Below the pieces are notes generated by a model, which had not been told where the DNA came from, did not search any database, and was given only the letters and a program-made list of their open reading frames with translations. Positions 1,069 to 51,345 of a DNA stretch of 51,345 nucleotides are shown here, piece after piece. Every line of letters starts with the position of its first letter. The stretch's first letter is position 1. Source of the DNA: Girardia tigrina (lineage: Eukaryota); contig MQRK01196038.1 of NCBI GenBank assembly GCA_001938485.1, positions 1 through 51,345 of the forward strand. The letters run 5' to 3'. The position numbers and the translations under genes are program-made.

Positions 1069-2137
1069 TGTTGGGTTCTTCATCAACATTGTAGTTCATC
1101 AACACCAAAATTGTTATTTATAACACAAATAACAATTATTTAAACAATTTTTCGTTGAGGAACTTTTGTTTGTTTTCTTTTTGATCAGATGCTTTGTGTA
1201 AAAAAATATGGAATTATAAATAGAAATAATATTGTGTAAAAAATATGGAATTATAAATACTGGTAAGCTATTTTAAAATTGAATTTTTTTTATTCTCTTT
1301 ATTTTGAAAATTAACGTTCAACTATTTCATAAAATTTAATTTAAAGTAAAACCAACATAATTTATTGTAGTCATATTTTTACTAAAATAACAAAAATGAT
1401 TTTTTATTACTTAAGAATTAGTTTAATGTTCTTTTATTTTATTTGTGGAAACGTTTTAAATAATAAAAGATTTTGACGTTTTATTTATTATCAATATTTA
1501 AATTTAAAAGCATTTTATTACCTACAATTATTTTAACTATTTATTCGTTCATTTTTTTACATGTTTTAATTACTTAACAAAATATATTTATCATTTTAAA
1601 CCTTTTTAAATGTTTTAGCTCAATTTTAATTAAATTACTTTAGTATCTATACAATTTAAATACAAAAAATAATATTCAAATTTATTATTATATTATTACC
1701 ATAATGATAAACGTTTTAATTTTTATTTTTTACGAAAACTGTTTACAATTAATTATTTGTCAAATCTTTAATTGGCGGAATTTCAAACTGACTTTAAAAT
1801 TTAAAATCATCTGTTTTTTTTTAAATTACATCTCCGGCAACAAAAATTTCATTACTTTATTTTTCAGAATAACTTTTAAAATTAATACAAAACATAATTA
1901 TCCTTATCTCTTTATTTTTCTTTTAAATCAATTATTTCCCAATTAATTTCATTTAAAGTTTTTATTCTACAATTAAAATTCAATTATTTCCGAAAATTAC
2001 TTTTTAAAATTAATTAAAGATATTTTTTTAATTATAATTATTTAGAAAACTTTTGATTTTAAATATTTCTTATTTTAGAAATTATTTACAAAAAATTAAT
2101 TATTTTAAAAATTTAAAGAGTGAACCTGTCCTTCACA
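1069..2137. mobile_element. Solo LTR, family A, copy 1 (TG..CA, 5-bp TSD)
   Basis: Starts TGTTGGGTTC and ends GTCCTTCACA. Perfect CTATT repeats at 1064-1068 and 2138-2142. Homologous inverted copy at 19391-20232. Confidence 0.8.
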
Positions 2138-2870: not shown

Positions 2871-3256
2871 TCAAACAATAACTATTTCATTTTGAGGAAA
2901 ATTATTTGAAAAACAATTTAAATGTAACTTTGTTTTGTGTTGAAACAGCTAATCTGAAGCCCAAAAGTGAAGGTACTCAAAGGAACATGATGGCTTTCAC
3001 GGACCCCAAAGATATCTAGATAACAGTTTCAGCATCGAAAAAATTTGTATTATAAGTTCAAATCAATAAATTTTCTCAACGCTTCATATTTATGTGCTCC
3101 AAAATAAATATTATTTTTTTCTAAAATATATATTTTTAAGAACCTCCCTCTCGTTAACAAAAAAAACAAATCGACAAAAAACATATAGACAGAAATAACC
3201 AAGAATTCTTAATTGTTATCCCGTGAGAGCTGTAATCAAAATTCTATGTTTACCAA

Positions 3257-3606
3257 ATATTAAGAACATTAATTAGGTTTTCTTGCGTAGCTCGTCATCG
3301 TTCTTGATTGATAATTTTAATAATATTCTTTAACGTCTTATTATTCAAACAAATTTAAATTACAATTTAATTATTATAAAAATAATTTATACTTTAAATT
3401 TGAAATAATTTTTATTTATTTTAAGAAAATATTAAAAAATTATTTATGAAATATTAGTTTAATTTTAAAGTGATTATTTAAATTTTAATACTTGATTAAA
3501 CAACCCGACGTTTTAAAATATTTAAGATATCAATCTTCCATCTGGGTGGGGGAAACACAATCCTAAAATAACATACAATAAATACCATTCAAAAATATTC
3601 CTCACA
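3257..3606 (-). mobile_element. Solo-LTR-like repeat, family B
   Basis: Ends TATTAAGAAC ... AATATTCCTCACA, core CCATCTGGGTGGG, flanked by CCAA/CCAA (3253-3256, 3607-3610). Confidence 0.7.
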
Positions 3607-6224
3607 CCAAGCATATATAAAAAGTTGCTATATAATGCTGTTATAAAGACAAATTATCAAGACAATGAGTCTTTTGTCTGTATAATCGATGTTTCAATAG
3701 AATAAGAGTTGGTTGTGAACATTTATTAAATGCATAAAAATCTGTGACCTTCTTCTGTATTACTATTATCTTACTGTATTTGAATTTGTTCTAGTTTTGG
3801 AATCGACAACCAGTGATTATTGAATTTTCAAAATATCTGCCAATTGTTATTTATGAAAACATTTGTGTATTTTAATTTAATTTAATTTCAATAAATTTAA
3901 TTTCTGTTCATTCTAGTGAAATTTAAATACATAAATTTATTTGATAGTAACAGAATAAAATTGACAAAAAGTTTTAGGAAATTAAACTGTTCAGGGATCT
4001 TTACGAAATAGAGATGGTCTGTTGATGGGATATTAAAGAAAGAGGAAAGGTTCATTGAATTCTATTTATTGGGAACAAAAGTCTTTGCACAAAAGTCTTT
4101 ATTGCAAGAAGAGTATCAAAATTGATTGGAGTTACCTGAATTTTTTAACTGATTTTTCGATTGAATTTTAAAAGCTGTTAATTGTAATTATAATTGGTAT
4201 CAAGACTAAAGAATTTGATGATGGGAGAAAAATGCTTATGTCGGAGGAAATTGAAAAGTTGTCTCAGATCATCTCTCACCCCTCCGGCAAGACCTTATAT
4301 TGCCAATTCATCGAAACCGCATTTTTGCGATGACTTTGCCATCAATAGCATACGCTCCACAAGTCAAAACATCATATCAACAGAAGTCACTCAGAAACGC
4401 ATCAATATATAATTGATTAATGGCAAATGTAAATATTGTAGTTTCTTAAAAAAGCTTATCTACTCGGTATTATTAGTTTGTCATGTATGAAATTTGTAGG
4501 AGTGATAACAACAAATTCAAATAGTTATAATTTGACAATGACTTCACATATTGTTGCTCAGTGTTTTTTGTTTGATTGCTACATCTATAAAAAAATTAAA
4601 TTATCAATAATTTGTTTTAATAAAATTAATCAACAAATTTAAACTTTGTGTCTGTTTCTTTTATGAAAATCCTTTATTCCTACTAAGTCACTCTTGCCAA
4701 TTACAAATCCACTATTAGTTTCTGTCCAGAACCTCTAGTTTGTCTTGTACAGCTACCCTGGTTGTAAGACAAAATAAATATTGCAACTTTATATGATAAC
4801 ATTTATTTATATTTAATAATTATAATCAATATTTGAAAAAATGAAAAGGCAGAATTTCGAACTATTACAACAAACTGCCGCTCAAATGACAAACGAGTGT
4901 CGATAATATGAGTGAATACTTTGATGAATGACATAAATGTTTGTGTTGGTAAATTAGCAATAAACTTTGACTTAAGTTCTACAAATTTCATACTTGAAGA
5001 CCTAATTATAAATATAATCTTCCTTAAATAACATTTTTTAATGTTTTAGAATATAAAAAACATAATAATTAAAATATAATAAAAAATAAAAATCTAAAAC
5101 AAATTAAATAATCAAATTTATGTACTTGATATAAAAAAAGAAATATTTAAAAGCAGATTTTATTTTAATTTATTCTTTTCCCTTCTATTCTTCGTGAATT
5201 TTGATAAATTGCAAATTTATTCTATTAATATTGATATTAATTATACAATTGTTCAATTTAAAGTGGAATATTTAATGATGTTACCCTAAAGAATTGTTGG
5301 GTGTAACATTGACTCCATGATAAATGATTTGAATAAAATTTTTATTACTTTATAAATTCGATCATTTGATCCCTGAAAATAAAATTTTGACTTATATTTC
5401 TAATAATTATAACGGACGGTTTATTTTAACAAAATTTTAAATTATAAGCTTGAAAAAATCAAAGAATAAATCATAATTTATTTTTCGTAAAAAATCCAGA
5501 CTATATATGTCGTGGAGATTTATTTTATTCTGGTCATATTTTAATAAAATTTTACAAATATAAATATATAATCAGAAGAATAGGAAAGCTAAATGTTAAA
5601 GAAACGTTTAATTAAATATTTATTATATTTTTTTGGTTAAATTCATTTATATATTTGTCAATATTATAATTTGAAGTCATAATCGTAAATTTTTAGAAAT
5701 TTTTAAATTTAACAAGAAATTAAGAAAATAAATTATTTATCAATGAGTGTCTAATAAAATTTTATTCTCAAAAAAAAGAAAAAACAACAAAAATCAATGA
5801 ATTATAAAATTAATAATTAAAAAAAATACAAAATCCAAATTTATCATTAACCAAAGAGTTCCTCAGAAAATTGTGTATGAATTAAATTAAAAAAAACAAT
5901 AAAAAAATTAATGATTAAAAAATATGTTGTTTGAATAATCATTAAATTTTGCGATCGAGTGAATTTAAGTGTGAAATTGAATCCACGAATATTTCTAAAT
6001 AAATGTTATTCTCGAATTTATTTTTTGTTGTGAATTGATTATTGGTAAATTTTATTATTGTGGGTTAACAAATATTCGGATCGATGGATTCCAATTCTTC
6101 ACGGACGATAGAAGACTCGAGAGCTTCTAACAGTATTATTTGATAAAAAAATTTTCATGTGTTTTTATATTTGTTTTGCGTGGAATTCAATCAAAAATTT
6201 TGAATTAATTTTCTGTAATTTTAA

Positions 6225-7329: not shown

Positions 7330-7620
7330 TACTTGAGCATTGATTTTAGGATCACATGATCTTATCAACAATGCTTCACATGACACTCTCTCCCAATAAT
7401 TTTTAAAATGCACAAAATCTTAAAATCATTTATGCTCATTTTACAGTTACACGTTTGTTATACTCAGCAATATCACTCTTTCCCCCGCTTTGACTGTTTT
7501 CTTGGACTCGTTTGCAGAGATGACGGGCAGTCTCTCCGATGTATGTGGCATTGCACCCATTACATGTGTATTGATAAACAATGTCCGAACAAAATGACGT
7601 TTAGTTTTGTTTTACTAAAA
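7330..7620 (-). pseudogene. Penelope-like element GIY-YIG endonuclease relic
   Basis: Manual translation DIVYQYTCNGCNATYIGETARHLCKRVQE...FKILC...WERVSCEALLIRSCDPKINAQ, with frameshifts; homologous to 26340-26780. Confidence 0.9.
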
Positions 7621-7694
7621 AAAATGCCATCTTTTTTCAAGTTTTTAATATGATTGTTTTAATTTATTTATATATGTTGTATCTCAGAGGAAGA

Positions 7695-8132: not shown

Positions 8133-8469
8133 AATTTTTCGAAAGTTTCTCTGGTTTTCAGAATTTTTTTGATACTTTTCAACATGTTGGTTTTGAATTT
8201 TTTACCGTTTTTCTTTTTCCGTCTCCGAATTAACCTATGAATTAAAGAAAAGAATTTAACAAAAAAAACCCTCATTTTTTAATTTCTTCGGCTTAGATTT
8301 GTTGTAATGAATATTTTTTCGTTCCATAATGTTCCACAAGAAGTTATATTTCAAAATATTAATAGCAAAGAAGCTCAAACTGACAAGAATAGCATAACAG
8401 TGGATTGTAAAGTCATGTGTGAACAATCAAAAGTGAAGGTTTGAACGAGACTGTCTTTTATGTTTTATG

Positions 8470-8705
8470 CTATCGTCTCTAATCAAAAACCAAAGGTAAT
8501 CTTCCATCATTGCTGTATGCCACGCTCCTTGGTACCTTTTCTCCGTTGTTTGCATATCCTAGTGGAAGCGTTCCCCCTGTTCCTCGCTAAAGTCACCAAG
8601 GGTTTCCCGAAACCAATGCAGATGCGAATGCAAATAATAAAGTTTTACCGACATTCTGCAGCCCAGTTTTTCGAAGTGTTTGAGCAAATCACTGAACAGT
8701 AGTTG
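8470..8705 (-). pseudogene. Transposase C-terminal relic with GERFH motif (CMC/Chapaev3-like)
   Basis: LLKHFEKLGCRMSVKL..LHSHLHWFRETLGDFSEEQGERFH*DMQTTEKRYQGAWHTAMMEDYLWFL matches the LGC.MS.K.H.LHSH...SDEQGERFHQD...E.RYQG block; superfamily assignment is from recall. Confidence 0.75.
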
Positions 8706-9389
8706 GTACACTTCACTCTTCTTATTTCCCAAGAATTTAAATTTTTGACTTTGTTTAATTTTAATTTAAATTGGGCTCAAGTAAAGGCCAAAGACAATCA
8801 CAGCGCGAACAATACATTATCGAAATATTTAACTTTATGGTTGAATTAATTTTTTTATTGATACTAGTGCAATCCTCCTTTCTTGTAGAGACATAAATCT
8901 ATATTGAATGCCAGAAAACGAAGTCCTAACCATCGATGCTCATCATTAATTTGTATAATTGTTGTTGCAATGCATAGAACAAGTTAATTTATGTAATTCT
9001 ATACAATCCAGTGTTTTAATTCATCGTTATAATTAAACAAAAATGTAAGAAAATTTCCCTTCTATTTATTAAAACGAATAATTTCAGGAGGTAAATTCTT
9101 CCAGTACATTTTAATTGAATGTTTAATTGATTTATGTCTGTTCTTTCTAAAGTTTTTTTTCAATCAGTTTAAATCAAAATTAATTCAAAAAATTTCAAAG
9201 AAAATTAATGATAAATTTACGAGGAATTAAAATTGAAAATTAAAATTGTTATTTGGCTGAGACTAAATAATTGTAATTTTTATTAGCTTTTTAATTAATA
9301 AATTTATAAATGAGTGAACAATAAATATATATTTATATTTATATAAAAATAAATAAATACTGTTGTCTTTATTTGAATGTGTGACATAT

Positions 9390-9750: not shown

Positions 9751-9990
9751 ATGTCGTTGCGGTTACCTATGAATACGGTTGTAAAGGCAACTATTGAATA
9801 TTTTTTCTTCTTTTTCTAACGGTTTCAAATATATAAATAAATTAATTTTCTTAAAATAAATATTTTGATGTATACGATATTTTAATTTATATTACAAAGT
9901 GATAAGAAATAATTTTCATATATTCATCTATTCAGTCAGTCCATTTTAATTATAAAATAACTACAAGTAATTTTTGAACTAATATATACT

Positions 9991-11045
9991 CGTGGATCGT
10001 TCAATAAGTACCCGGCCTGACATTTATTTATTGCACAATAATTGCAGAATGTATGTAGGAATCATTTTTCAACATATTGTTCATTTCACTCCACACACTT
10101 CCGCTAACGAATAATCAACTCATAAAATCTATTTTTAAAAGATTATTCGGGGCATGCGTCGACAAAATCCTCCACGACATCCTTCAAACTGCCGAATTGT
10201 CGTAAAAAACCATAGTAACGTATTTTTTCTGCGGTTGCCGTGGAAGTTCTGTAATAGAATACGTTTATGGTGTTTCTCAGCGAAATCAATAAGAATAACA
10301 CATCTATGATTCCAGATAATAAATCTTTTGTCTCTTCAAAGATGGCTACTGTCCAGGAAACTTCCACTCTGCTGACTCACGCTTTGTTTCAGGTAAATAT
10401 ATATACTGAGGTTTCATCCTCCGTAATTAATTTTGCATGGAAAATCTTACTATGCAGGTCTCACAGTTTCAATTTGTTCTGACTACTCTCCAATCAGTTT
10501 GGCATCATTTCTCCGGTTAAGAAGCAGGGTAAAAATCTGGAGCACAGTTTGCTGATACTCATTAATTTTAATTAAGTGCAGATTGTACCAACACTGATGT
10601 TGAACTTCGTTTACAGCCTTGTCACGGTAATTCGACGTACTTTTTCGAACATTTTCTCCAATTTTTTATCAAGTATGTCACAGATTTCTTGTGGCCGACT
10701 ATTCTTGATTAAAAACGGAGGTTCAGCAACCTTCACACTGTCTGACCCAATATTTAAGAATTATCAGAGATAACGAATCATGGAAGTAAGTTGACTGCAA
10801 AATATCATAGATTTCTCTGCACATCTTCTTCTGCAAAACAGAAAACTTGATAACTCTGCAAGATTCAACTTTTAAAATTATCGCACTGACTAAAATTCAA
10901 AATGTCTCAAAAAACGTTTAATATGTTTGATAAAATAAAACAATTACTGAAATAAAACCTATATTAATTTATTTAATCACACACAAAAACTGAAATTTTC
11001 TAATTCATTTCCCCCTCAGGTCGGTTATTTATTGAAAACACCGCG
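9991..11045 (-). mobile_element. Decayed mariner element with imperfect ~30-bp TIRs
   Basis: TIRs CGTGGATCGTTCAATAAGTACCCGGCCTGA / TCAGGTCGGTTATTTATTGAAAACACCGCG; translation SRPQ...KLCSRFLPCFLT...LITEDETSVYIY..TKRES.EW with many stops. Confidence 0.8.
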
Positions 11046-11173
11046 TACCCATATTCTCGAAATCTAATCATTTAACATTCTTACTCAAAGAAATTATAGT
11101 TTTTGCAATAATGGACATAAAAAATTTATAATTCCATAATATTCAGGATCAGTTATGGAATCAGCTTTAGACT

Positions 11174-11198
11174 TGTGAGGAATTGGTGTTCTTAATAA
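11174..11198 (+). mobile_element. Collapsed ~25-bp copy of family B (both termini only)
   Basis: AGACT-TGTGAGGAATTGGTGTTCTTAATA-AGACT: family B 5' end joined to its 3' end and flanked by a direct repeat. Confidence 0.7.
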
Positions 11199-11254
11199 GA
11201 CTTTTTGCCAGTAATGTATACAGAGACTGCTTTACTTTTAGAATATTAATTATA

Positions 11255-11660
11255 CATTCTTCCAATGATACTGCTCGGATTGCGGAACTCGACGTTAACC
11301 GGATCAAATGCCTCACCGGCACAACTATTGTACGGCTCTTCCACTTACCTTCTGGGAGACATTATCTTGGACAGTGAAAATCAATCGGCATATTCCAAAG
11401 AAGATATAGAAACAGCCATTCGTGGTTTTACAAGTCCGGTTGTAAACAAACACCCAACACGAAAAATCTTTGTTTCATCAGTATTATAAACGTTCACGTA
11501 AGTCTGGTTAAGAAGAGACATCATCGGTTCTCTCAAATCACCATACGAAGGACCTTATAAAGTGTTGCACCGATCCGAAGACAAAACAATATCGATTGAT
11601 CGTCTCAAACCAATGTTCACTTGTCAGGACACTCCTCTTCTTCCACAGGGGCATATGTAA
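11255..11660 (+). pseudogene. Ty3/Gypsy integrase C-terminal relic with putative PPT and LTR start
   Basis: LPMILLGLRNST....SPAQLLYG, PYEGPYKVL, ISIDRLKP, then AGGGG followed by TGT at ~11656. Confidence 0.85.
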
Positions 11661-11977
11661 AGTGACAACTTTACTTAAGCAATAAATTATTTTAATTCAA
11701 TTTTGTTGAATTAAAAATAATGATTTTTAATTTAATTTTTGTTAAATTAAAAATAATGATTTTTTTATCGATTGTTTAAATCGATAGATTTATTAATAAA
11801 CTTTTCAAAGAACTGATCTTTAAATTATTCAATATTTAAATAATACAAGAAGATTACAATAACTTATAATGTATAATTAATATTCTAAAAGTAAATCAGT
11901 CTAAATATTTACTGTTATTTATAACCCTTTCCTATACCAAATGAGAAAAGTTAAGTAGCCTCAAAGATTTTCAATCA

Positions 11978-16185: not shown

Positions 16186-17846
16186 CTTAATCCAATTTAA
16201 TAATTCCCTTATAATTTGTAAACATGTGTAACAATCAACTCTTGTTAATTTGTAGCCAACGTACCATAATGGATGACAATTTTCCTCCACCATAAAAGAG
16301 ACTGAAGCAAGCTAAACTGACTGTTCTTCTTCAGAAATATACTCTTACTAATTTTCCTTTATCTGCCACTCCAGTGACTATTTTGCAAAGTTCCTCTGCG
16401 CTGTGCCCTTCACTTCCGTCTCCAATCATTTCACCGTACTCCCAAAACCTTGATTTAACTGATCCTCATTAAACTGTGAATTATCCTGCAGTTTTGAGCA
16501 AGAAGCAATGGGAGAAATAGATTAATGGGAGAAAGAGATTAGCGAGTTTGAATTCTCGAAAATATTTGATCGCGAGAGCTCGTAAGAATCTATTTTCGAG
16601 ACAATCGCCAATCCGTCGATGGATAGTGTCAAATGTTACAAGCAATTCATTGTCGCATCGCACTTGACTTCTATCTTGCGACTGTACAACAACTATTCGT
16701 TGAACGATAAAAATGCGATGGCTCGATCGATTAAGCTCGTTGAACTTACCAATGTTGTGGAATGGAGGAACTATCACGAAAAAAACATCTATTTATACTT
16801 TCAAGTTTTACCTCTGACCATAGGTTGATAATTATTTCAAAAAGTAAAAAAAAATATTATATTGTTTTTTTGAAAGAAGATACACTAAAACGTGTTACAG
16901 TTTGATGTCATATATCAAATTTATTTTACGTTGATACTGACAAAATTTTGAAATATTCCTATATAATTTCTATATTACTTCCATTGAATTCGACCTCGAC
17001 CGACCGACGAAATCCTAGTTACAATTGTTGGGTTGAGAAACCACTAGAATAGGCAAACATGACTATCTGGAGGTGGCCACTTCCTTAAACATCAAGCTCA
17101 CGGTCTCATGCCACCATAGCAAGTCAACAGTTTCATACTTAATACTCAATTTTGACCAGTTATTACAGCACGCTAACCAAACAGTATTGACCAGGAATAA
17201 AAAAAGGCTACAAAAGTTTGAGAAGTTAATATATAAAGAAAAATTAATTCAATATAATTTTTATCTACACAATAAATTTTAATTTAACTTTTTAAAAATT
17301 ATAATTTTTTTAAAAATTTATCACTATTTTTCTGATTTTTATAATTTTAATTTTTCATTTATTTTCGGCCAATTTTATGACTTACAATAAAAAGTGATGT
17401 CACATTTGAAACAATCAAATTTTATGTATTTTTTTTTGGAAAAAAGTCGAAAACTAAACGTAAATTTTTGGAAAAAATATAAAGCTTTTAAAAAAAATAG
17501 TTTTTTCTTTTTGATTTAAGATTAGTTGAAATGTTTTTTCATGCTAAACGAAACAGATGACACTTTCGATATTTAGGTGATTTTTCCCATGTTCAGCTGG
17601 TAGCTGCCGTGACAACTTCCCGACCTGGGATTCCTCCAGGAAAACGAAATTTAATTAATAACAAAATGTTGATGTTCATAAAATTTGCCGTTTGGAAATA
17701 CAAAATTTAAATACCTTGATTGGATTAGAAATTGGAAAACAAAATTTTTTTAATTGAAAAAAAATTAAAAAATAAATATTGAGAAAATATACATTAATCG
17801 ATTTATTAATAATAAAATAATTTTTAATAATAAAAAAATAATTGAT

Positions 17847-18385
17847 GTATTAAGAACACCAATTTGACTTTTTATATTTTTATTTTAACAACAACTTTGA
17901 TTGTCCTTAAGACAATCTTTGTCTAAAGTTTCGTACATTTGCATTCTAAACTAAATTGATTAATGAATTAATTCTTATTATTTTTTAGCAAATGTGGAAA
18001 TAAATATTTTAATAAAATATTCACTCAAAACTTATTGGATAATAATTCAAATGATAATTAATTATTTAAAAAATATTAATTTGATTTATTTATTAAATAT
18101 TGTAAAAATTAATTATCTTATTTAAAATTTTAAAATTATTTGAAATTAGAAATAAATTTAAACATTACATATTTTTTAAGAATTACATATTTTTAAGAAT
18201 TAAAATAAATAATTAAAAATTAATTAACTTATTTAAAATTTTTAAATTATTTGAAATAAGAAATAAATTTAAATATTACATATTTTTTAAGAATTACATA
18301 TTTTTAAGAATTAAAATATTAGTCATCCATCTGGGTAGGAGAGACACAATTCCAAATCAACATACACATTCAAATATTCCTCACA
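17847..18385 (-). mobile_element. Solo-LTR-like repeat, family B, with internal ~110-bp tandem duplication
   Basis: Ends GTATTAAGAACACC ... AATATTCCTCACA, flanks TGAT/TGAT; strongly similar to 25447-25870 in inverted orientation. Confidence 0.75.
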
Positions 18386-18422
18386 TGATATATTTAAAAT
18401 AAAATATTTTTTGTCCAATTTA

Positions 18423-19390: not shown

Positions 19391-20232
19391 TGTGAAGGAC
19401 GGGCTCAATTTCAAAATTTTTGAAACAATTAATTTTTATAAAGAATTTCTAAAATAATTAAATATTTAAAATCAAAAGTTTTTAAAGTAATTTTAAGTAA
19501 AAAAATATATTTTTTCTTAATTAATTTAAAAAAGTTATTTTCGGAAATAATCAAATTTTATTTGTAGAGTAAAAAACTTAAATTGAAATTAATTCGGAAA
19601 TAATGGATTTTTAAATAATTAATTTAAAAGAAATATATAAAGACAAGGATAATTATGTTGTACTAATTTTAAAAGTTATTCTAAAAATTAAATATTAAGA
19701 TTTTTATCATTAATGTATCGTAATAATAATAAAAATTTGAATATTGTAAATTATTTTGTTGTTTTTAAATTGTATCTAAAATTTGTATGGTATTTAAAAT
19801 AATTGTAGGTAAAAAATGCTTTTAAACTGAAATATTGATAATTAAAAAAACATTAAAATCTTTATTAATGTTTCACAAAAAAAGAAATAACATTAAACTA
19901 ATTCTAAAATAATAAAAAATCATTATGGCTAATTTAGTAAAAATATGACTATAAAATTATATTGGTTTTAATTTATAAATAGTGGAATGTAAATTTTCAG
20001 AATAAATAGAATAAAAAATTTTCAATTTTAAATAACCTATCAGTTTATTTATATTTATAATTTCATATTTTTATATAAAAAATCTGGTCAAAAAGAAAAC
20101 AAAAAAGTTCCTCGACAAATATTTTTTTATTAAAAGAAAATTGTTAACTAAAAATTGTTTGAATAATTGTTAATTGTGTTATTAATAAATTTTTGGTGTT
20201 GATGAACTGTAATATTGATCAAGAACCCAACA
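19391..20232. mobile_element. Solo LTR, family A, copy 2 (inverted relative to copy 1)
   Basis: TGTGAAGGAC...AAGAACCCAACA; flanks ATCAC/TTCAC (4/5); homologous to 1069-2137. Confidence 0.8.
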
Positions 20233-21279: not shown

Positions 21280-21530
21280 TGTCTACTATGTTAGTTTGTT
21301 TGTTTCTTTATGATCAAAATGCGAAATGGCAGAGCAAATATCTAAGGACGGGGTCAATCTGTACAACCAGCATCAAGACGCCGTGCACGTACACCGATTG
21401 TTAAATCAACAGGGTTAGGGAGAGGTAAAGTTAGTTTTAGAGTCAAGATTATGGTTCGTAGTTTGCAGTAAAGTTAAGGTTATGGTTTTGGGTTAGGATT
21501 AGAGCTAGGGTTTTGTTTAGGGTTTATGTT
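21280..21530 (+). repeat. Dispersed repeat related to the Helitron-like family, with a degenerate TTAGGG-like tail
   Basis: TATGATCAAAATGCGAAAT...GACGGGGTCAATCTGTAC...CAACAGGGTTAGGGAGAGGTAAAGTTAG, shared with 22914-23085 and related to ~28670 and ~42950. Confidence 0.6.
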
Positions 21531-22913
21531 AATATTTTAATAATTAACGCTCAGTCATTTTCTTCCTAAAATACTAATGAATTATTTTTTTTTGAAATAT
21601 CTTAAATGTTTACTACGATAAAATTTGACAGCAAAGAAAATTGATAAAGTGTTACTCGAAGAACTTAGGAAAAGACTTAATAGATAAAGACAACTTCGAT
21701 AAAAAACTCCTACCAGGTGTAGTTTTAGGGAAAACTAATTGGTGGAGTGACCACTGCAGGAAAGATTCTCCATTGAAGACGGGGTAAAAGGAAAATACAT
21801 TTCTATAAAAATATGTTATTTACACACTGTTATAATAAAATAAATTTTCATTTTTTCAATACAATCAAAAAGATTTTACTGGCCGTTCGTTGATGGCAAA
21901 ACATTTTCATTTAAATTTTTTTTATATTTTTCTCATAAAAATATTAATTTATGATTTTGCAATGATTGTCATACAAAAATAAAAAAAATTTAAAAAAAAA
22001 TAATATGACGTTATTATTTTTTCTTAATATTACTAAATTAATTACGTCTAATAGAAATTTAGAAAAAAAATTTAGATTTAAAATATTCTATTTTAATGAA
22101 ACAAATTAAACTTAAAACAAATCGGTTTTCATTCAATTAAAAAGTAATTATTATATTTTATTCGAAATAAAATTTAAAAAAATATTCTATTTAAATTCAA
22201 TCCATAAATTAAAAAAAAGTTAATTAAAAAGAGAAAAAAAACGTATTTTCAAAAAATTAAGTCTTAATAAAATAATTGATATTTTATATAATTTTATTCA
22301 TTTAATTTAAATAAGTACAGAATATTTATCTCTTTTCTCACATATTTTAAAATGGGAAAAAATGTTTTTTTTGATGAAAAACTATATTTTAGAAAATCAT
22401 AAAATTTTAAGAGACATTGAGTGGAAAATTATACATTTGATGAGAACACATGCAAATTAAATTAATTACTTCTTCCGTTAAAGAATGAAGAAATTATAAA
22501 TTTATTGAAGCGTTAATAAAGAAAAAAAGTTACCATTTCTAAAATCGAATGTTGTTTTTTCTGTTTAATTTTAATATAATACGCCATTGATATATGCTCG
22601 TTGAGATTGTCGAGGAGGACTCCTTCTGAGCTGCCCAGGTGTTCAATGTGAAGGTCTAAATAAATTAATTAGTTAATAATTCAATTAATTATAAAAGTTA
22701 ATTAATTAATTATTTGTTCTTAATGCTTTGGATCCTATATATCGTAAAAAATAATTTTTAGAAAAAGATAAAATCAAATAAANNNNNNNNNNNNNNNNNN
22801 NNNNNNNNNNNNNNNNNNNNNNNNNNNNNNNNNNNNNNNNNNNNNNNNNNNNNNNNNNNNNNNNNNNNNNNNNNNNNNNNNNNNNNNNNNNNNNNNNNNN
22901 NNNNNNNNNNNNN

Positions 22914-23085
22914 CTATGATCAAAATGCGAAATGTCAGAGGAACTACCTAAGGACGGGGTCAATCTGTACCGCCAGCATCAAGACGCTTTTTTCAGTGCA
23001 GAGCCTTTGCTGAAAGATGACGTGAAAACCGTGGACATACACCAATTGTGAAATCAACAGGGTTAGGGAGAGGTAAAGTTAGTTA
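22914..23085 (+). repeat. Second copy of the 21309-21435 repeat
   Basis: Direct sequence similarity; the copy at 21309 lacks a ~30-bp internal segment. Confidence 0.75.
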
Positions 23086-25446: not shown

Positions 25447-25870
25447 TGTGAGGAATATTTTGAATGTTTGATGTTTTGTGTTTGAATGTTTATGTTGATT
25501 TGCAATTGTGTCTCTCCTACCCAGATGGATGATTAATATTTTAATTATTATAATCTGAAAATATGTAATATTTAAATTTATTTTTAAATTCAAATAATGT
25601 TAAATTTTAAATAAGTTAATTAATTTTTTAAAATTTTTAATAAATAAATCAAATTAATAGTTTTAAAATAATTAATAATCATTTTAATTTCTATCATATA
25701 AGATTTGAGTAAATATTTTAATAAATTATTTATGTCTCCGTTTGCTAAAAATAATAAAAATTAATTCATTAATCAATTTAGTTTAGAATACAATCGTACG
25801 AAAGCTTTGACAAAGATTGTCTTAAGGACAATCAGAATTGTTGTGTGAATAAAAATATGAACTTATCAAA
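25447..25870 (+). mobile_element. Family B LTR-like copy, 3'-truncated
   Basis: Starts TGTGAGGAATATTTT, contains CTCCTACCCAGATGG and shares GACAAAGATTGTCTTAAGGACAATC with 17847-18385. Confidence 0.75.
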
Positions 25871-25899
25871 TAATTATTTTAATTATGTTCAAATAGTTA

Positions 25900-26044
25900 A
25901 TCCTTTAAATTTAAATAAAAATACCAATTTCCATCTGGGTGGGAGAATCACCATTCTAAATTCAACATACTTAAATCAACATCATCATAAATCAGTCATC
26001 ATCCATACATTCGCACATTCATACAATTTAAAATATTCTTCACA
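25900..26044 (-). mobile_element. Family B partial copy, tail-to-tail with the previous copy
   Basis: TTCCATCTGGGTGGGAGAATCAC ... AAAATATTCTTCACA. Confidence 0.65.
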
Positions 26045-26339: not shown

Positions 26340-26780
26340 TCATGAAAATACTTTCAATAAAGTTGAAGAGGATGGCGTTTGGACATTGATTTTAGGATCA
26401 AAAGATTTGATCAACAATGCTTCAAACATCACCCTCTCCCAATAATTATCAAATTGTGAACACAAAATCTTAAAATTACTTACATCAACTTTACTATTCA
26501 AACAATTCTTATGTTGAGCAATATTGCTAACACTTTCTCTGCGATTATGTTCCTGAATCCGTTTACAGAGATGACGACAAGATATATACATATATATACA
26601 TAAAGTAAGCTAATACAAAGACTGGAAAAGGAGAGGTCAATTTCGCATGGACATGAAGTAGAAAAAGTACGAATCTTATTAGTTACCTGTCCCAGAAAGG
26701 GTATTGAAAAGTGGTGAGACAATTCTTTGTGCCTCTGGATGAACCAATTGGTACATATAGTTAGAAAATGCGTCTTAGTA
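26340..26780 (-). pseudogene. Penelope-like element linker plus GIY-YIG endonuclease relic
   Basis: FSIPFLGQVTNKIR; RHLCKRIQEH...SNIAQH...C...NFKIL...EALLIKSFDPKINVQ. Confidence 0.9.
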
Positions 26781-27439
26781 ATTTTGTAGCTCGTAAATTT
26801 TTTGTTTTTAAAAATAAAAATGTTTAACACTTTAAAATGATTATTGATTAAATTTTATTGTTGTACTATTTCAAATATTTCATTAAAATTAGAGTTTTAA
26901 TATTATTGTTGAAAATATTTAAACATAATTATTAGTTTTTTCAAATTATACACACAATATAAAAAGTAAATTGATAAATGTATAAAATTAAAAATATAAA
27001 AAAAATTTCAAAATAAATCTTATATTAAATATCAAAATATTATATATTTTAAAATAGAATAGTTTAAAATTTTTAAACAAAATTTTTTAATTATAAAATT
27101 TAAAAAATTAAAAATCGAGAAAATTAATTTTTATACACAATCTATTTTTAATAATTAAAATTTATATATTTATGTAAGGATAAATAATTATATTTAATTC
27201 TATATTATTTTTACTATACTAAGATAACATTTAAATTATTATAATAATGGATCCAAAATATTCTGAATTAAGTTTCTTGATGATTTTTGTTTAAATAAAC
27301 AAATAACGCGCACCTTTTTAAATAAGAATAAATTTTTGAAATTTAGACTTAATAATTATTGATGGAAAATTCTTACAATTTATATTAAGAAAATATCGTT
27401 CCTCATAAATTGGTTTGAAAAAATAGTTAGTTGTTACAT

Positions 27440-27770
27440 TAATAAATATTTGTTCCAAGAACTCTATCGTTGACCACGAACCCAACAATGTGCTTGGTTT
27501 GTTTGAAGTTTATTTCACAATAAAAAATCTTATCGTGAAACTAAATTCCTTTTTCGATTCTTGTAAAACGTTATCCCGAATTATAAAAAAATTGAGACAC
27601 ACTAAAGGCCATTTCACAACTTCCAATATTTAAAACCCCTGTTTAGAAACCTTTCTTCTGGAAGGTCTTTTGAAGAACAAGAATTATTCAGCCTATAAAA
27701 AGTCTTGATCGATTTAGTAATGCAGAACCAAGTATCATTCCCAGGTCGTGCTTCAGGTTTCTTTAAAAGA
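27440..27770 (-). pseudogene. Possible hAT (ZMYM1-like) transposase N-terminal relic
   Basis: RFLNRGFKYWK resembles the TTF zinc-finger F...GF.NWK motif and a downstream VRGQR resembles RGH; heavily decayed. Confidence 0.35.
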
Positions 27771-28624: not shown

Positions 28625-29321
28625 ATATATATAATATTTGTCTAAAAAGTGTGTGTGTGTGTCGGTCACGCTTTTCAATATGAAATTGCGAACGATCCTG
28701 ATTGAATCCATTTCAGGACGTAATAAATCTGGATAGATCACATCAATGTAATTTTATCAGTACAGCGCCTTTGTCGAAAGACACCCGGAAGCCGATGAAA
28801 TCGATGGAAAACGTACAAGTGTTAAATGGTTAAATTAACATTGATTTCGAATAATGACGATTTTGATGATTCCTACAAGATTTTCGTGAAAAATGATATG
28901 AAAATACTAATAAAATACTAATTTATTTGATAAATGACGATTTCTATAACTCATTTTTAATTATATTTCTAAAAATCAATTTACATAAATTTACAAAATT
29001 TCGTTGTCATCTGATTTACGGTTTGCCGGTCAAGCTCAAATTTTACTATGATCATATATATGCTGATAAAATGCCAAATGGTGGAGGAACTGTGAGTGAA
29101 TCCGCATAAAGTTGAGATAACACTGCATAATCCGAATCGAGACGGTTCTGTCTGTACATCCTCTTTGCCAAAAGGCACCGGGAGCCGACTTAATTGACAG
29201 ACTGTTAAATCAACACAGAATTCGAAACAATAAATAATATATTTTAATAATTACGATTTAAAAAGTAAAACAGAAACATTCAAAGTTGAAAATTCAGCTC
29301 ACCCAACGGGTATTTTTCTAG
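28625..29321 (+). mobile_element. Non-autonomous Helitron-like element (composite)
   Basis: 5' ATATTTGTCTAAAAAGTGTG..GTCGGTCAC and 3' ACCCAACGGGTATTTTT-CTAG; both ends homologous to 42900-43192. Confidence 0.65.
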
Positions 29322-34890: not shown

Positions 34891-36194
34891 GGAGACAGGG
34901 TTTCCATCCAAAAGACAATTATTCTTTTTTTAATTGTATAACCAAATTTTTAATTGTAAACCAAACATGTGAGGAGCGACAGTGTGAATACACAAAGTAT
35001 TACAATTTAAAGTTTAACTTATTCATTTTTGTCATCCTAATATTTAAAGATTGAATTTTCAGGCAAATATGGAAGAATCTGCATTTATATTAGATAATAT
35101 TTATTTATGCTATTTTCTAAAGGTTTCTTTAATAATAATAATTATTATTATTTAACTAGAAAAAAATCCGTCATATATGACGAGAGAACTGAACTTTTGT
35201 CTTTGAAAGTAATTAAGTGATATAAATCGTCATTTATCCAATAATTTAGTATTTTATAAGTATATTCATAAAATGTTTCACGAAATTCCTTGTAGGAAGC
35301 ATTTCGAGGAAGATTTCGTTGCATTTTGTGAAGTTGCAATTTGTGAATCTTTACTGTATATATATAATATTATTTATTATTTATATTCTATAAAAGTAAT
35401 ATAATATATCACAAATTAAAAGTAAAATTTCATTTTTCTATAGTTTCATAATAAAATGAAAATATTTTTTAATGTATTTATCGAATTTATTTATTGTAAA
35501 ATCAAAAAATATAATTCCAAATATTATCATAATGATAAAGGTTAATATGTAAGATGTGAGGGCAATAATGATTCTGTTGGAGGAAGAATGTGGAGAGGAC
35601 TCTTTGGACTCTTTGATATTATCCGATGATTTTATTATTATATCTCTAATTATTAATTATTTCCATGTTTTATTTTAGTAGTCTCATTAAAGGAACATCA
35701 TTCCATATTTTTATAATTACGTAGGTGCCTTCACCATCAAATATTGGATCATAAATAGGAATATTATTGATATAATTATTATGCTTTATAAAATAATTTA
35801 AAAATCATGTTGTTTTTAATTAATAAATCTAAATTTTTTTAAATATAATTTTTAATAATTGAAGACGCAAATTTGGCAGTGGAGGTAAAAAATTTGTACT
35901 TTCAGAACGGTTAATTGGTATCCTTGTGGGAACTCCTTATTAGTTGTGTTAGATGTTCTTCGAACATCCTCAGAATTGTTATGAAAAGTTGATTCCAACA
36001 ACATTTCTAAATATTATTATATTACAATGTTTAAAAAAAGGATGAAAAATAATATTCAAACAAACTTATTTTTCTTAAGAAACAATTTGTTTTATAAATC
36101 TTAAACCAGTATAATTAAAATATTTATAAAATTAATATTTGATTTTATTTTCATTTTATAAATTTCACCTTTAACATTTTAAATAACGCTAACG

Positions 36195-37210: not shown

Positions 37211-37324
37211 TTTGAACGCGGAGAATTTAAAAATAAAATGAATAGTATGAAACTCGTTGTGATCTCTCATTGTGGCCGAGTCAGAATATAAATGATTAAT
37301 ACAATCTACAGGGTGACGCAAAAT

Positions 37325-37651
37325 GTTTTTGTTTATTAAAATATCAATTACCAATTGCCTTTTCATTAAGGATTGTACATTTGACTAAAAAATAAATTTG
37401 TCTTAGGGACAGCTGGATATGACCACATTTATGCTTTTAGATCCAAAGCTCAACTTGAGTAGGTTTAGTCCATTATTTGGAGACTGATGGTCACGCTGTG
37501 TGCCCTTCGAATAATAATCTAATTATGGTTTTGGTCATAATGGTTCGTTTTTACATCTCGGTATCCTCTACAATCATAATTTCATCAAAAATTACCATGA
37601 TTCAGAAAAGGAAACTTGATATTTTCAATACATCAGAGATAATTATTTGTA
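37325..37651. repeat. 327-bp inverted duplicate of the right flank (39201-39527) of the adjacent transposon
   Basis: No mismatch seen on reading; the ORF track shows identical 60-aa ORFs at 37477-37659(+) and 39193-39375(-). Preceded by TA and a 16-nt TIR tip at 37309-37324. Confidence 0.95.
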
Positions 37652-39200
37652 CAGGGTGACGCAAAATAAACTCCAAGGTACTTTTCTATTGGATCTTTTT
37701 ATCCACCTACTTTTTTATAGGTAAAGTTTTTAGAATCCTGAGCGTCGCCAAATTCTGATGGTATATAAAATAAATCAAAAAAATCAAAAAAAACATCAAA
37801 AATTAAAGAAAAATTTGTGAGACGAAAAATTTAACAAGCTTTTTATTTCATAAAGCATAACAACAATTAATTATTGAATTTCAACTTGTCCTCCATCTCT
37901 AAGAAAACATTCATGCAAACGTCGTTTGTAGTCGGCCACAACGCGTTCATGAAGTACGCGGTCTCCATGGATTTCATTGGCAACTCCTTCAATCGCTGCT
38001 CTCAACTCTTCGAATGTCTTGGACGTTGTTCGCGATGATAAATTCGACCTTTCATATAGCCCCACAACCAATAGTCACATGCTGCAAGATCTAGCGAGCG
38101 AGGTGGCCATGTAACTGGAGCAGGATGCGCCCGTGTTCTGCGACCTATCCATCGATTTGGAAACTGTTGACCCAACAATTCAAGAAAATCTCCAAGAATG
38201 TGTGGCGGAGCGCCGTCATGCTGCTCAATGAGAGAATTGAGATTCGGCCAAGTTTGAAGCTCTGGAATAACGTGCTCTTCATACAATTCAGTCATCCAAC
38301 GACCATTGATTCCGCGCTCATTTCCTTGTCACTCCCAAAAGTATGGGCCAACAACACCTTCAAACCAATGAGGATTTTCATCGGCCCACATAATCCAGTC
38401 TTGACGATTGACGCTTCCGTCCAAATGAAAGTGGGCTTCATCCGTAAAAAGAAGATTGTTGAGTCTGTTTGCATCTTCATCCAATCGATCCAATTCGGTT
38501 CGAGCAAACTAAATTCGAGCGGCATAGTCGGTCTCCTCCAAGGCATGAGCCATTTGCCAATTATAGGGACGCATCTGTAAGTCTTCTTTCAAAATTCGCT
38601 GCAAGCTTCTTTGTGGCATACGAACTGTTCCGTGATCGTCTTCTTCGCTGTCAGTGTCGCCAGTTGAAACAAGTGGATTGCGTCGAGTTGATAGATGAGG
38701 ATTTGCAGTAAAGGCTTCACGGACGTCTTCAATGGCTTCTTTGGTGCGAATACGTTTTGGCTTGTTCTTTCCGCGCTTTCCATGGACACTTCCAGTCACT
38801 GGAAAATCGTCAATCCATTTTACAATGACTCTTTTTTCCGGAATTTTTGCTCGACCATTTCTTGTTTCACTTCGGAATCGAGTTTTTAGCTGCGCATAAT
38901 CATAGGCTTCCTCAATAAGCATCAAAACGAGATGAGCTTTTTACTGATCCGTATACGTCATTTGAATCAAATTTTAGGGTAAAACTTTCTAAGTTCATTT
39001 TAAAAAACGCTTGTTAAATTTTTCGTCTCAAATTTTTTTTTAATTTTTGATGTTTTTTTTGATTTTTTTGATTTATTTTATATACCATCAGAATTTGGCG
39101 ACGCTCAGGATTCTAAAAATGTATACTTTACCTATAAAAAAGTAAGTGGATAAAAATATCCAATAGAAAAGTACCTTGGAGTTTATTTTGCGTCACCCTG
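37652..39200 (-). mobile_element. Tc1/mariner-superfamily element, rosa/VS (DD41D)-like, ~190-200-bp TIRs, flanked by TA
   Basis: TIRs begin CAGGGTGACGCAAAATAAACTCC; TA at 37650-37651 and 39201-39202; transposase inside. Confidence 0.95.
37871..38961 (-). pseudogene. Transposase pseudogene with D..D46D catalytic triad
   Basis: ATG at 38961; FTDEAHFHLDG, QHDGAPPH, WIGR, WPPRSLDLAACDYWLWGYMK. In-frame TAA 38941-38943, TAG 38509-38511 and TGA 38329-38331; frameshift near 38020. Confidence 0.93.
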
Positions 39201-41978
39201 TACAAATAATTATCTCTGATGTATTGAAAATATCAAGTTTCCTTTTCTGAATCATGGTAATTTTTGATGAAATTATGATTGTAGAGGATACCGAGATGTA
39301 AAAACGAACCATTATGACCAAAACCATAATTAGATTATTATTCGAAGGGCACACAGCGTGACCATCAGTCTCCAAATAATGGACTAAACCTACTCAAGTT
39401 GAGCTTTGGATCTAAAAGCATAAATGTGGTCATATCCAGCTGTCCCTAAGACAAATTTATTTTTTAGTCAAATGTACAATCCTTAATGAAAAGGCAATTG
39501 GTAATTGATATTTTAATAAACAAAAACGTTGATAATCGGGTTGACAGTGTTTGTTTACGGGTTTATCTACGAAGACATTTTATAAACAAGCCACATTTAT
39601 TTATAAACAATAAACAATATAAAGAAAGCAAACTAAAATTCTTTTTCTAACTGAATAAAATTATGAATAATTTTCTTCTGAAAACTGTCTAAAATATAAT
39701 TATGTTTATAAAAAATAAGAATTAATAAAATAATTTATTTCTTCAAGATTTTATTTATTCCCTTCATCTTTGGTGCACCTTTGTTTCTTGACGGCGAACC
39801 CCGGGGTCATTCTGGTGCTCGTTACGAGGGGGTTGTTTATTTTTTTAAATATTTCGGAATTAATCTGAAAAAGACGGATCGGAGCCGTGAGTTGAATAAT
39901 GTGGCTCAATTCTTATCAAGATCAATGAAATTATTTTCGATTATTTATAATTATTTATATTTATAAATATTTATTTAATATATTTTAATGTCTTATAAAA
40001 TAATATATATTATTCTAGATAATATTATACATTATATTATTTATTGCTTAATTTACTACTTTTTATTGTATTTAACGAAAAAAAGATATATTTAATTAAA
40101 GTAGATATAGAATGAAATATTAATTAAAGTAATAAAAACGGAACTCTAAAAAATAATTAGTCAAATTTTATGCATTAATTATTATATATTTTATTAATAA
40201 CTTATTAAGGAAACTTAATTAAAAATCTTTATCAATTTTGAATAAACGGAATTTATTTTATTGATTAATTAATTATCTGACAAAAAATCAATAATAATAA
40301 TATATATTAAATGAATACGAAAAATAATATTTAAATATATAATTTTGAGTTTTAATTAGAAAAAAATTATATAATGAATTTTTAAATCTTTCACCTGGTG
40401 GAATTTGATTTTAAATATTACAAAATAATGGATTATTAATTAAAACCAAAAAATTTTTACGTAAATTTTTTTATTTTTTTTGTAAACAATTTTGCTTCAT
40501 AGGAATAATAATTAAATTAAAATATAATTACACATCAAAATATCTTTATTCTATATTTTTGTATTTTTATAACTAATGACTTATATTATAAATCTATATT
40601 ATTGTATTCGTTTCGACAAGTTTACACGATTTTAGTGCACCAGATATTAAAGGAATAAATTCAATTCCATCTATTTTACTTTCAAAAAGACATAATTTAA
40701 GACAAAATAATTACATGTGTAACAAGAGCTTTTTTATATTACCACGTTTTTAACGTCACTAGAAATATGATTAATTGCAAAAATATTTTATATTATTTGA
40801 ACGTTGACTACTTGTTTTCTAAAAGATAAGTATTTTTAAACAGAATTATATCAATTTTTAAGTTTTAAATTTAAAATGGTTTAGACATTGGAATTATGGT
40901 TATCAGAATAAATTCGATGTAAAATATAATTAAAATGCACAAGAGTGATTAGATGCTGCTGCTGCATTAAATTTAAATAAAAAAATAGATTTCAGTATTT
41001 TGGCCGGTTTTTTGATGCCTGTACTGTGTAATGCTATGCTTTTCCAGACTCAAAAGAATTTTCCAAAAAAATAATTGAGTTTACACACCTCTACTGTCCT
41101 CTATTATTCTATACACTTAATATATATTTTTCACTTTTGTTTCTTAATTTTTGCACTGTTTAGAATTTTTATAATCATTTTTTTCGACTATATTGTCCTT
41201 AAAATTTCAGTTTTCTATTTTAAAATATTTAATCACTCTATTCTCACTAAACAATCACAAAATACACAAATTTTTACGAAATATTTAAATAAATTAGATA
41301 TCAACTGTTTACATAAACTATTAAAATCCATATACTTTCAACAACGCCATTTATCTATGTTCTTCTTCAATTCCTATATATTTAAATTGACCGGTATAAG
41401 CGTTAACTAAAATTGATAAAATAAAATGATGAATTAAAATTAATTTATATCGTAAGATATAATCTGATTTGAGCTATTAATTATTATTAATTAACAACAA
41501 CGGAGATTCATATTTGATCAAAACAAAGATTCAAATCATTTTATTATACAAAATTTATTCATATAAATTGGGGTCTACGACAAAAACGCCGTGGACAAAA
41601 CGCCGCGGACAAAAATGGCTTAAATTAACCGACAAATTATAGAAATTTTAAATGGAGCACAATCTTTGAGTAGATAGAATGTTAATATTTTGTTTTTTAA
41701 AAAAATTTTACAAAAGTCAAAATATCTTTAAATAATAAAAATAAAAATCCATATAAAAATATTATTTTCGGAATTATTTTTATACTAATGTGGAAAAATA
41801 TTTAGTATTTATTTAATTTATTACTATTTTTAAAATTTTAGTATTAATTTATAACATTAAAAAAATAAAAATAAAAATAAAATAAATACAATAATTTATT
41901 TATAATTTATAAATATTAGAAATTAGATTAAATTATTAAATTTTTTCAATTATTTTTACGAAATAATGTTAATTAAAA

Positions 41979-42239
41979 AATATTATTAATAAAAATAAAT
42001 TTTTATAAAACCAACCACGTTTTTCAAGCATTACCAATGAAATAAAAAGAGGAAAATAATTTTTTTTCTAGACATGTGCGAAATTTTATACCTAACCCAA
42101 AAACGTGGGGCGGATTTCTGAATTACTGCTATTAGTAACTGCTATTTCCTCTTTACTGCTTTTTTTTCTCTTTTTAGTGCATTGGTAATGCTTGAAATAC
42201 GTGGTTGTTTTTATAAAAATTTTTTTTATTAATAATATT
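41979..42239. repeat. MITE-like foldback with ~60-80-bp inverted arms
   Basis: TTTTATAAAACCAACCACGTTTTTCAAGCATTACCAATG (42001-42039) versus CATTGGTAATGCTTGAAATACGTGGTTGTTTTTATAAAA (42180-42218), extending on both sides. Confidence 0.85.
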
Positions 42240-42899
42240 ATTTAACTATTTTTAGTTATCATTTAGGAATTCAAATCTTTCGATTGATTTCGAATAACAG
42301 AAATGATAATAAAACCANNNNNNNNNNNNNNNNNNNNNNNNNNNNNNNNNNNNNNNNNNNNNNNNNNAAATAACAAAGTTTTATTTTAATAAAAGCAAGT
42401 TTTATTTCAAAATAATTTTTAAACCTAATTTTAATACTTCTACACTTAATTATCACTTGATTTTAACAATATTTGTTCAATTTATTAATTTTTTCCGTAC
42501 ATCCGTAAAGTAAATGTTTTAAAATATTGTATTGTCATCGGAAGCAAGCCTGTATAAAAAAAGTCAGCTCAATTGGTTGACTGAAAGTGGTCGAAAAATC
42601 AATCGCAAGATTTGTTCCAGACAGACAGACAAGAAACCAAGCTAAGAAAAACGTGGTAAAATATTTCCCGTTTTAGGCCAAAACCTTCAGAAAAAACCTT
42701 TGAGGTAAAACACGGATTCCTGGAAAAAGAAAAAATGTTCCTTTATAAGAGATCAATTGATATATCCAATTTTGACTATCACCTTGAGAATTAAAATACT
42801 AGAGAGTGCTAAATGTATCGACAGGAACAAATGACCGGAAGGGACTCTGTTTGTCAGAGTCTTCTTTAAAAGAACTAATTTTAGTTGATGATGGGTACC

Positions 42900-44483: not shown

Positions 44484-44862
44484 CTATTAAGAACACTAAT
44501 TGGATTTTTAATAAATTTATTCAACTTGAAGCGCCAATAGGACAATTTTCCATAAAACTTTTGTAGTTAATCATCATTCTTGATTAATAAATTTTATTCT
44601 ATTTCTCAAAGTCTTATTATTTAAACAAGTTGAAATTACAATTTATTTACAATTCGATTAAAAGATAATTTATATTATTAATTAAAAAATATTTTAGATA
44701 TATTTAAATTAAGGCTCAGTTATTTAAATTTTAAAATTGAATAAATAATTCAACGTTTTGAAATATTTAAAATATCAATCTTCCATCTGGGTGGGAGAAA
44801 CACTATCCTTAAACAACAAAAGAAACAACATACAATAAGCAAAATTCAAAATATTCCTCACA
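44484..44862 (-). mobile_element. Solo-LTR-like repeat, family B
   Basis: CTATTAAGAACAC ... CCATCTGGGTGGGAGAAACAC ... AAAATATTCCTCACA; flanks AAAA/AAAA (low complexity). Confidence 0.7.
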
Positions 44863-51089: not shown

Positions 51090-51345
51090 TGTGAGGGAAA
51101 ATTCTGAATGTTGTAAGTTTGTTGTTTTTATGCTGTTTAGATTTGTGATTCTCCTACTCAGATGGGATTGATATGTTATTTGATTAATTATTTAAATGTA
51201 ATGAGATTAATCTAATGAGATTAATTTAATGGTTTAAATACTAATTAATTGAAAAGTTTTATTATTATAAATTTTAATAATATTTTTAAGTAAAATATTT
51301 TAATAATATTTTAATTGTCACGGGTGTCAAAACTCGTACATCGGA
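51090..51345 (+). mobile_element. Divergent family B copy, 3' end not identified
   Basis: TGTGAGGGAAAATTCTGAATG ... TTGTGATTCTCCTACTCAGATGG. Confidence 0.6.

Follow-up and report, generated by a model that had tools for sequence, protein, structure and literature searches.

A one-sided variable base beside 4-bp target site duplications in two families of LTR-like repeats from Girardia tigrina

Introduction

The usual view of integrases and transposases is that they attach a fixed CA-3′ end straight onto a staggered cut, so that the target site duplications (TSDs) abut both ends of the insertion. In the standard scheme two terminal nucleotides are removed from both ends beforehand (PMC5408687). 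Ty1 joins blunt ends (PMC2939329), and one-sided end processing has been proposed, and also contested, for foamy virus, where it concerns the U3 end (PMC1180852).

Several Gypsy lineages commonly have 4-bp TSDs, and in Saci2-like elements these regularly accompany LTRs with TGT...ACA termini (PMC12471100). TSDs of 4 bp are also described for Osvaldo-lineage elements of Culex (PMC3286476), as well as for ta-TRIM (52 of 57) and lennie (63 of 65), with an occasional 5-bp duplication (PMC4558846). LTR ends of the type TG...TA are already known: plant TGTA Copia elements number 941 copies in lotus with a mean LTR length of 288 bp (PMC9804982), and TGTA is one of the seven motifs of LTR_retriever (bioRxiv 10.1101/137141).

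The window analyzed here is a stretch of 51,345 nt of Girardia tigrina DNA (contig MQRK01196038.1). It is AT-rich and eukaryote-like, with a GC content of 0.19–0.36 per 2-kb bin, and has (TA)n tracts and assembly gaps. Two repeat families in it, termed A and B, appear to have a single variable base between the 3′ end of the element and a 4-bp TSD. This one-sided junction is probably new, and rests on six insertions. No description of it was found in the full-text literature, a search that had most subscription papers and Repbase outside its range; this silence is weak evidence of novelty.

Family B

Family B is present as seven copies in the window, six with a core motif and one a micro-copy of 24 bp. 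The core motif, CYCCYACYCAGATGG, matches exactly six times and never in 100 shuffles (mean 0.00, maximum 0), which bears out the count of seven made in an earlier note on this DNA. That note also held that complete copies end in TGTTCTTAATA and not in CA, and the end motif is indeed found 4 times, with a chance mean of 0.16 and 0 of 100 shuffles reaching 4. An nhmmer profile of the 5′ heads shows six window hits at E < 1e-12, which are its own six source copies; it detects no further family B copy in the window and gives 0 hits in 20 shuffles. Profiles of B heads, B tails and family A show no extra complete copy in the window. The pairwise best local identity among B copies is 68%–87%.

A complete copy of 349 bp is at positions 3258..3606 on the minus strand and has the form TGTGAGGAATA...TGTTCTTAATA. 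Its extra base is at 3257 (T in element orientation) and its TSD, TTGG, is at 3607–3610 and 3253–3256. A complete copy of 538 bp (17848..18385, minus strand) has an internal 111-bp tandem duplication and an AATAAA 37 nt before its end, with an extra C at 17847 and the TSD ATCA at 18386–18389 and 17843–17846. The complete copy of 378 bp (44485..44862, minus strand) also has AATAAA 37 nt before its end; here the extra base is a G at 44484 and the TSD is TTTT, at 44863–44866 and 44480–44483.

The micro-copy (11174..11197, plus strand) has both termini in 24 bp, the 5′ head being joined to the 3′ tail via an AAT overlap. Its flanks, AGACT/AGACT, can be read as a perfect 5-bp duplication or as a 4-bp duplication, GACT, with an extra A at 11198. 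A joined head-tail motif of this kind occurs 0 times in 20 shuffles.

The other copies are partial. One, at 25447..25870 on the plus strand (end approximate), is without the 3′ terminus and has 87% identity to the 17848 copy over 306 bp. A 5′ fragment at 25890..26044 on the minus strand, also without the 3′ terminus, has the head TGTGAAGAATA and its core at 25931–25945. This copy had earlier been placed at 25900, whereas its head is actually at 26044. These two copies sit tail-to-tail, both without a 3′ end. The 5′ part of a copy is found at 51090..51312 (plus strand, end approximate); its 3′ end is not seen, the similarity fading shortly before the window end.

A TGTGA-like start at 18725 was rejected as a further copy: it has no matching end with a TSD. 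Also rejected was a 79-bp stretch at 22647–22725 (plus strand) that combines an A-like start, TGTGAAGG, with a B-like end, TGTTCTTAATG (tail at 22715); it shows no TSD and may be a chance occurrence or a remnant. A core-motif scan of GTDB genomes yielded 0 loci, and plasmids and phages gave no match.

Family A

Family A is the largest other dispersed repeat in the window and displays canonical TGT...ACA ends, TGTGAAGGAC...GAACCCAACA. A complete copy of 1069 bp is at 1069..2137 on the minus strand, and its flanks, AATAG/AATAG, are either a perfect 5-bp duplication or a 4-bp one plus A. A complete copy of 842 bp (19391..20232, plus strand) has canonical ends and an AATAAA 49 nt before its end. 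The flanks are ATCAC/TTCAC, i.e. a 4-bp TSD, TCAC, with an extra T at 20233. About 45 nt inside the family A 3′ end (20171–20187, plus strand) there is a motif like the B terminus that overlaps the AATAAA; it is not statistically significant.

A tentative third A-like element is found at 26728..27487 on the plus strand. Over its last 110 bp it resembles family A (72%, E 1e-9), and it ends in GAACCCAACA. The end at 27487 is followed by A+TGTG, and T+TGTG is present at 26727–26731, but the 5′ start is ambiguous and the element was excluded from the main tally. It sits inside a Penelope-like relic, and the Penelope homologues do not span its junction.

Families A and B begin alike, and an intermediate sequence in one B copy, TGTGAAGAAT, fixes the relative orientation of the two families. 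Homology between the A and B 3′ ends is not significant in 3 of 4 pairings, and the fourth is an AT-rich match.

Other mobile elements in the window

The window also has decayed mobile elements besides families A and B. Pfam searches of 41 window ORFs gave only weak matches, below cut-off. Searches for homologous proteins returned Tc1-like and Gypsy pol proteins or no match, and the ESM Atlas yielded hits at 0.82 only. The relic of a Gypsy integrase C-terminus at 11262–11657 has 79% identity to a Gypsy pol protein. No other Gypsy relic was found in the window, and this one is attached to neither family; a scan of GTDB for it gave 0 confirmed cases among 601 pattern matches. It is bracketed by a 35-bp inverted repeat (97%) at 11224–11258 and 11868–11902. 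The bracket further encloses a purine-rich tract and, at ~11657, a possible LTR start. The inverted repeat opens with AGACT, the same 5-mer as in the flanks of the micro-copy. The 11224–11902 unit may be a templated insertion or a Pack-type element.

Two Penelope-like relics, at 7330–7650 and 26346–26594, are both on the minus strand, and their homologues carry RT and GIY-YIG. A broken Tc1-like transposase, 55% identical to a DDE_3 protein, is at about 48179–49016. At 37309–39530 there are ~500-bp inverted repeats (97.5%) with a broken transposase, one outer end appearing truncated; we take this element, which is without a Pfam match, to be Tc1/mariner-like. Dispersed non-autonomous repeats are found at 28626–29320, 42903–43190, 21309–21436, 22915–23084 and 35216–35302, with a GT microsatellite near the start and a CTAG end in two copies; these are presumably Helitron-like. 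Fold-back palindromes are present at 44929–45122 and 41970–42248, the former with 93-bp arms (96%) that have TGTC...GACA within them, and without a clear TSD. Fragments at 8445–8765 (minus strand) and ~9990–11050, both without a tool match, resemble in our view a Chapaev-like transposase and a decayed mariner, respectively.

The 3′ junction

The junction set consists of six complete elements: four of family B, including the micro-copy, and two of family A. In element orientation the flanks of the long B copies are CTTGG/TTTGG (3258–3606), TATCA/CATCA (17848–18385) and TTTTT/GTTTT (44485–44862), and each pair is mismatched only at base 1 of the 5-mer. The earlier note gave these three pairs correctly, each with four matches and one mismatch. 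The statement that every complete copy has a mismatch holds for three of the four; the micro-copy, omitted from that tally, has perfect flanks. In the simplest reading the odd base adjoins the 3′ terminus; which 5-mer carries it is visible only with an empty site. An empty-site test that had the micro-copy inside the Gypsy integrase relic was dropped, the match beginning at 11262 with nothing upstream aligning.

The six elements were scanned for TSD lengths of 3–6 with 0–2 bases skipped on each side. At lengths 4–6 the sole perfect fit is a 4-bp duplication that begins one base beyond the 3′ end, with 24 of 24 bases matching in 6 of 6 elements; 3-bp sub-cases of this offset are also perfect. 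The TSDs are TTGG, GACT, ATCA, TTTT, ATAG and TCAC, and a chance 4-mer match is expected empirically at 0.0105 per element. A plain 5-bp reading of the six gives 26 of 30 matches, and all four mismatches are at position 1. The conditional probability of this clustering, a post hoc figure, is 5.5e-4 (2.7e-3 if the shared position is left free); the corresponding values in family B alone are 3.5e-3 and 1.8e-2. A 5-bp duplication with decay has a maximum likelihood of 1.1e-4 over the six elements, and a 4-bp duplication with a random base has likelihoods of 0.32, 0.095 and 0.007 at 0.1%, 5% and 15% decay. The likelihoods disfavour ordinary 5-bp TSDs with random decay, and the one-sided anomaly noticed earlier is supported.

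Three of the six junctions form the discovery set, and the micro-copy and the two A copies are independent of it. Among the independent junctions a single mismatch occurs, and it falls where predicted (a hand-calculated chance of 0.2); positions 2–5 match in 12 of 12 cases.

Family A shows the same junction type as family B: in the flanks of the 19391–20232 copy only the base beside the 3′ terminus is mismatched. Because ACA-ended family A has this pattern, the asymmetry is independent of the TA end, and the tie between the two implied in the earlier note is not supported. The evidence supports the one-sided extra base as a real anomaly common to the canonical-ended family, with the TA end secondary. 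Two readings had been offered, a 4-bp TSD with a variable base or a 5-bp TSD with a systematic change. The first fits somewhat better, since 2 of 6 junctions are perfect 5-mers.

The extra base

The extra base, N, is T, A, C and G in the four complete B copies, although the neighbouring 11 bases do not differ between them. It is A and T in the two family A copies. No clear purine bias is seen in the six junctions. The probability that all four B bases differ is 0.0001–0.010 if N is an inherited neutral base (0.0008–0.010 at 10%–25% change per branch), compared with 0.056–0.094 if N is drawn anew at each insertion.

Class of the elements

It is plausible that families A and B are solo LTRs, and the earlier term “LTR-like” is plausible from the ends, size and AATAAA. 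All complete A copies (2 of 2) have TG...CA termini, and B ends in TA in 4 of 4 complete copies. The TSD in 6 of 6 elements is 4 bp, within the 4–6 bp expected for Ty3/Gypsy, offset by one base at the 3′ end. Of the six long copies with a 3′ end, four have AATAAA (B at −37 and −37, A-like at −49 and −47), followed by a TG-rich tract; the motif is also found in the truncated B copy at 25447, and is missing from the B copy at 3258 and the A copy at 1069. The position of −37, in 2 of 3 long complete B copies, is the same despite ~68% identity, and two of the three family A copies, the tentative third included, have the motif 47–49 nt ahead of their end. On the opposite strand it occurs in 1 of 8 copies, and a random 30-nt stretch has it at 12%. 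This placement suggests the orientation used here.

The paired LTRs flanking gag-pol that the earlier note had named as a check are absent from the window. No PBS or PPT is recognisable in the 25-nt flanks of the six complete copies or upstream of the partial copies, as expected of solo LTRs, and no internal region adjoining any A or B copy was found. As neither paired LTRs nor a PBS, PPT or ORF was found, LTR membership is unproven. The longest stop-free frame is 56 aa in B and 100 aa in A, the latter without a Pfam hit above cut-off. Rfam and tRNA searches each gave 0 hits, and no core RNA fold is common to 5 B copies.

There is no long terminal inverted repeat (TIR) in A or B. Read as an inverted repeat, the B ends agree at 6–7 of their 11 outermost positions (9 of 13 at best), and the A ends at the first 3 bp only. 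Overall the inverted repeats are 3–13 bp and imperfect, in elements of 0.35–1.07 kb.

Proposed mechanism and alternatives

The best explanation at present, which we hold tentatively and at somewhat less than an even chance, is that A and B are Gypsy-type solo LTRs inserted with a 4-bp stagger and one untrimmed base at the U5 end. Both families would have been left by related LTR retrotransposons of the Ty3/Gypsy type. The integrase would cut the target with a 4-bp stagger and join the TGT (U3) end precisely at its CA-3′OH. The U5 end (...ACA in A, ...ATA in B) would be joined still bearing one extra nucleotide that the integrase had not trimmed. Reverse transcriptases add untemplated bases at blunt cDNA ends, and N would most likely come from such a non-templated addition; imprecise primer removal is an alternative source. 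The insertion would then read 4-bp TSD, TGT...A(C/T)A, N, 4-bp TSD, and an apparent perfect 5-bp TSD would arise where N happens to equal the host base. Against this reading stand the small number of junctions, the lack of a clear purine bias in N, the copies without AATAAA, and the absence of any link between the Gypsy relic and either family; the one-sided processing in foamy virus, moreover, is at U3.

The main rival has a smaller, though appreciable, chance of being right: A and B may be non-autonomous DNA transposons that lack long TIRs and are mobilised by a DDE transposase of the TG/CA type, the two ends being unequal. All 24 TSD bases are preserved (P 0.005 at 20% decay) and the termini do not vary, even though the interiors share only 68%–87% identity; remobilisation of old, diverged copies would produce this combination. 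The micro-copy keeps both ends, joined by microhomology, and is like a gap-repair or excision remnant, for which the P element offers an analogy. Ten copies of A and B in 51 kb make up 9% of the window. Such a density and an ends-only 24-bp copy are more typical of non-autonomous DNA transposons. These points and the lack of a paired copy, PBS or PPT count against solo LTRs and suit a non-autonomous DNA transposon. The B ends also form a degenerate inverted repeat. N could be renewed in each cycle if transposition went through an IS2/IS3-like copy-out circle whose junction carries one flanking host base into the new site. IS2 itself ends in a TA-3′ dinucleotide on one side and has a host spacer of 1 bp in its circle junction, but the spacer is described as cleaved off both termini on insertion and not kept (PMC3299598). 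Moreover, no transposase-bearing copy was found in the window, the inverted repeat of family A is only 3 bp, and the conserved AATAAA placement is a better fit to an LTR. Ginger, which is eukaryotic, TGT-ended and has a 4-bp TSD, has TIRs of 40–270 bp (PMC2836005). An LTR origin is somewhat ahead, since TIR-less TG...CA ends with 4-bp TSDs fit a described class and Ginger needs long TIRs.

It is doubtful that the TSD is an ordinary 4-bp one beside a templated but unconstrained last base of the element (...ACAN or ...ATAN). N would then be inherited and differ between old subfamilies; in an LTR element it would be the base between LTR and PBS. All 24 TSD bases would be explained without new chemistry, the copies come from diverged lineages (68%–87% identity), and the end positions of retroelement cDNA are error-prone. 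The four B copies however show all four bases, for which the probabilities given above favour a fresh choice, and the two A copies differ too.

We give a similarly low likelihood to a true 5-bp stagger in which gap repair at the 3′ junction keeps one flap base derived from the element or donor, the mismatch resolving either way. Two of the six junctions are perfect 5-mers, and at least 4 mismatches of 6 have a probability of 0.11 under 50:50 repair. A random N is favoured ~3.5-fold over this model (0.326 vs. 0.092), and there is no reason at hand for retention at one end only.

Also improbable is a TIR-less eukaryotic lineage of the TG/CA type, unlike described superfamilies, in which one end is cut precisely and the other gains a fresh base at each insertion. 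If this were true, the fresh base could come, e.g. via an IS2/IS3-like circle junction, CA would be dispensable at the second end (ACA vs. ATA), and a 24-bp ends-only unit would be possible.

Ordinary 5-bp TSDs with chance post-insertion mutations, i.e. a small-sample accident, are very unlikely, for although n is 6, the pattern was noticed post hoc and the divergence is enough for some decay, 4 of 4 mismatches are at one position and 0 of 24 elsewhere, with the clustering probabilities and maximum likelihood given above.

If the proposal of an untrimmed base at the U5 end is true, a lineage in which one untrimmed, variable base is routinely integrated would offer a natural experiment on the purpose of 3′-end processing, and every insertion would preserve a trace of how the DNA end looked when it was integrated.

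Comparison with known systems

Helitrons and Helentrons (HINE, DINE-1) have no TSD and insert between fixed dinucleotides. The same insertion features are described for complete Helitrons (PMC3627910). The variable 4-bp TSDs in 6 of 6 elements rule against such a reading here.

The proposed processing of one cDNA end in foamy virus is similar to that suggested for families A and B. The unprocessed end in foamy virus is U3 and of fixed sequence in that contested model (PMC1180852), whereas the odd end here appears to be U5 and is variable.

Ginger1 and Ginger2 elements are like families A and B in the TGTNR start (TGTGA here) and the 4-bp TSD, and have a Gypsy-like integrase chemistry (PMC2836005). 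They differ in the 40–270-bp TIRs of that description, compared with at most 9 of 13 positions in B and 3 bp in A. Their target preference, CCGG/CCGT or RTATAY, is not seen in the six TSDs.

IS2, of the IS3 family, has one CA and one TA end, unequal end roles and, in its circle junction, a single host base beside one end (PMC3299598), and in these properties it is similar to the repeats described here. It is bacterial, unlike them, and has 41/42-bp inverted repeats and an OrfAB transposase; its spacer is not reported to persist in insertions. The IS3 features (OrfA/OrfB and ~40-bp inverted repeats) are absent from families A and B, which have no ORF above 56 aa (B) or 100 aa (A) and no long inverted repeat.

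The non-TGCA (TGTA) Copia elements of plants share with family B the TG...TA termini (4 of 4 complete copies), and their LTRs are ~300 bp. In these elements 5-bp TSDs abut the termini, in contrast to family B, where 1 of 4 copies is perfect at 5 bp.

Ty3/Gypsy solo LTRs differ from the repeats of the window, where a variable base lies between the 3′ end and the TSD, B ends in ATA and no linked gag-pol, PBS or PPT is seen. They are similar in the TGT...ACA ends of family A, the 4-bp duplication, and the non-coding units of sub-kb to kb size.
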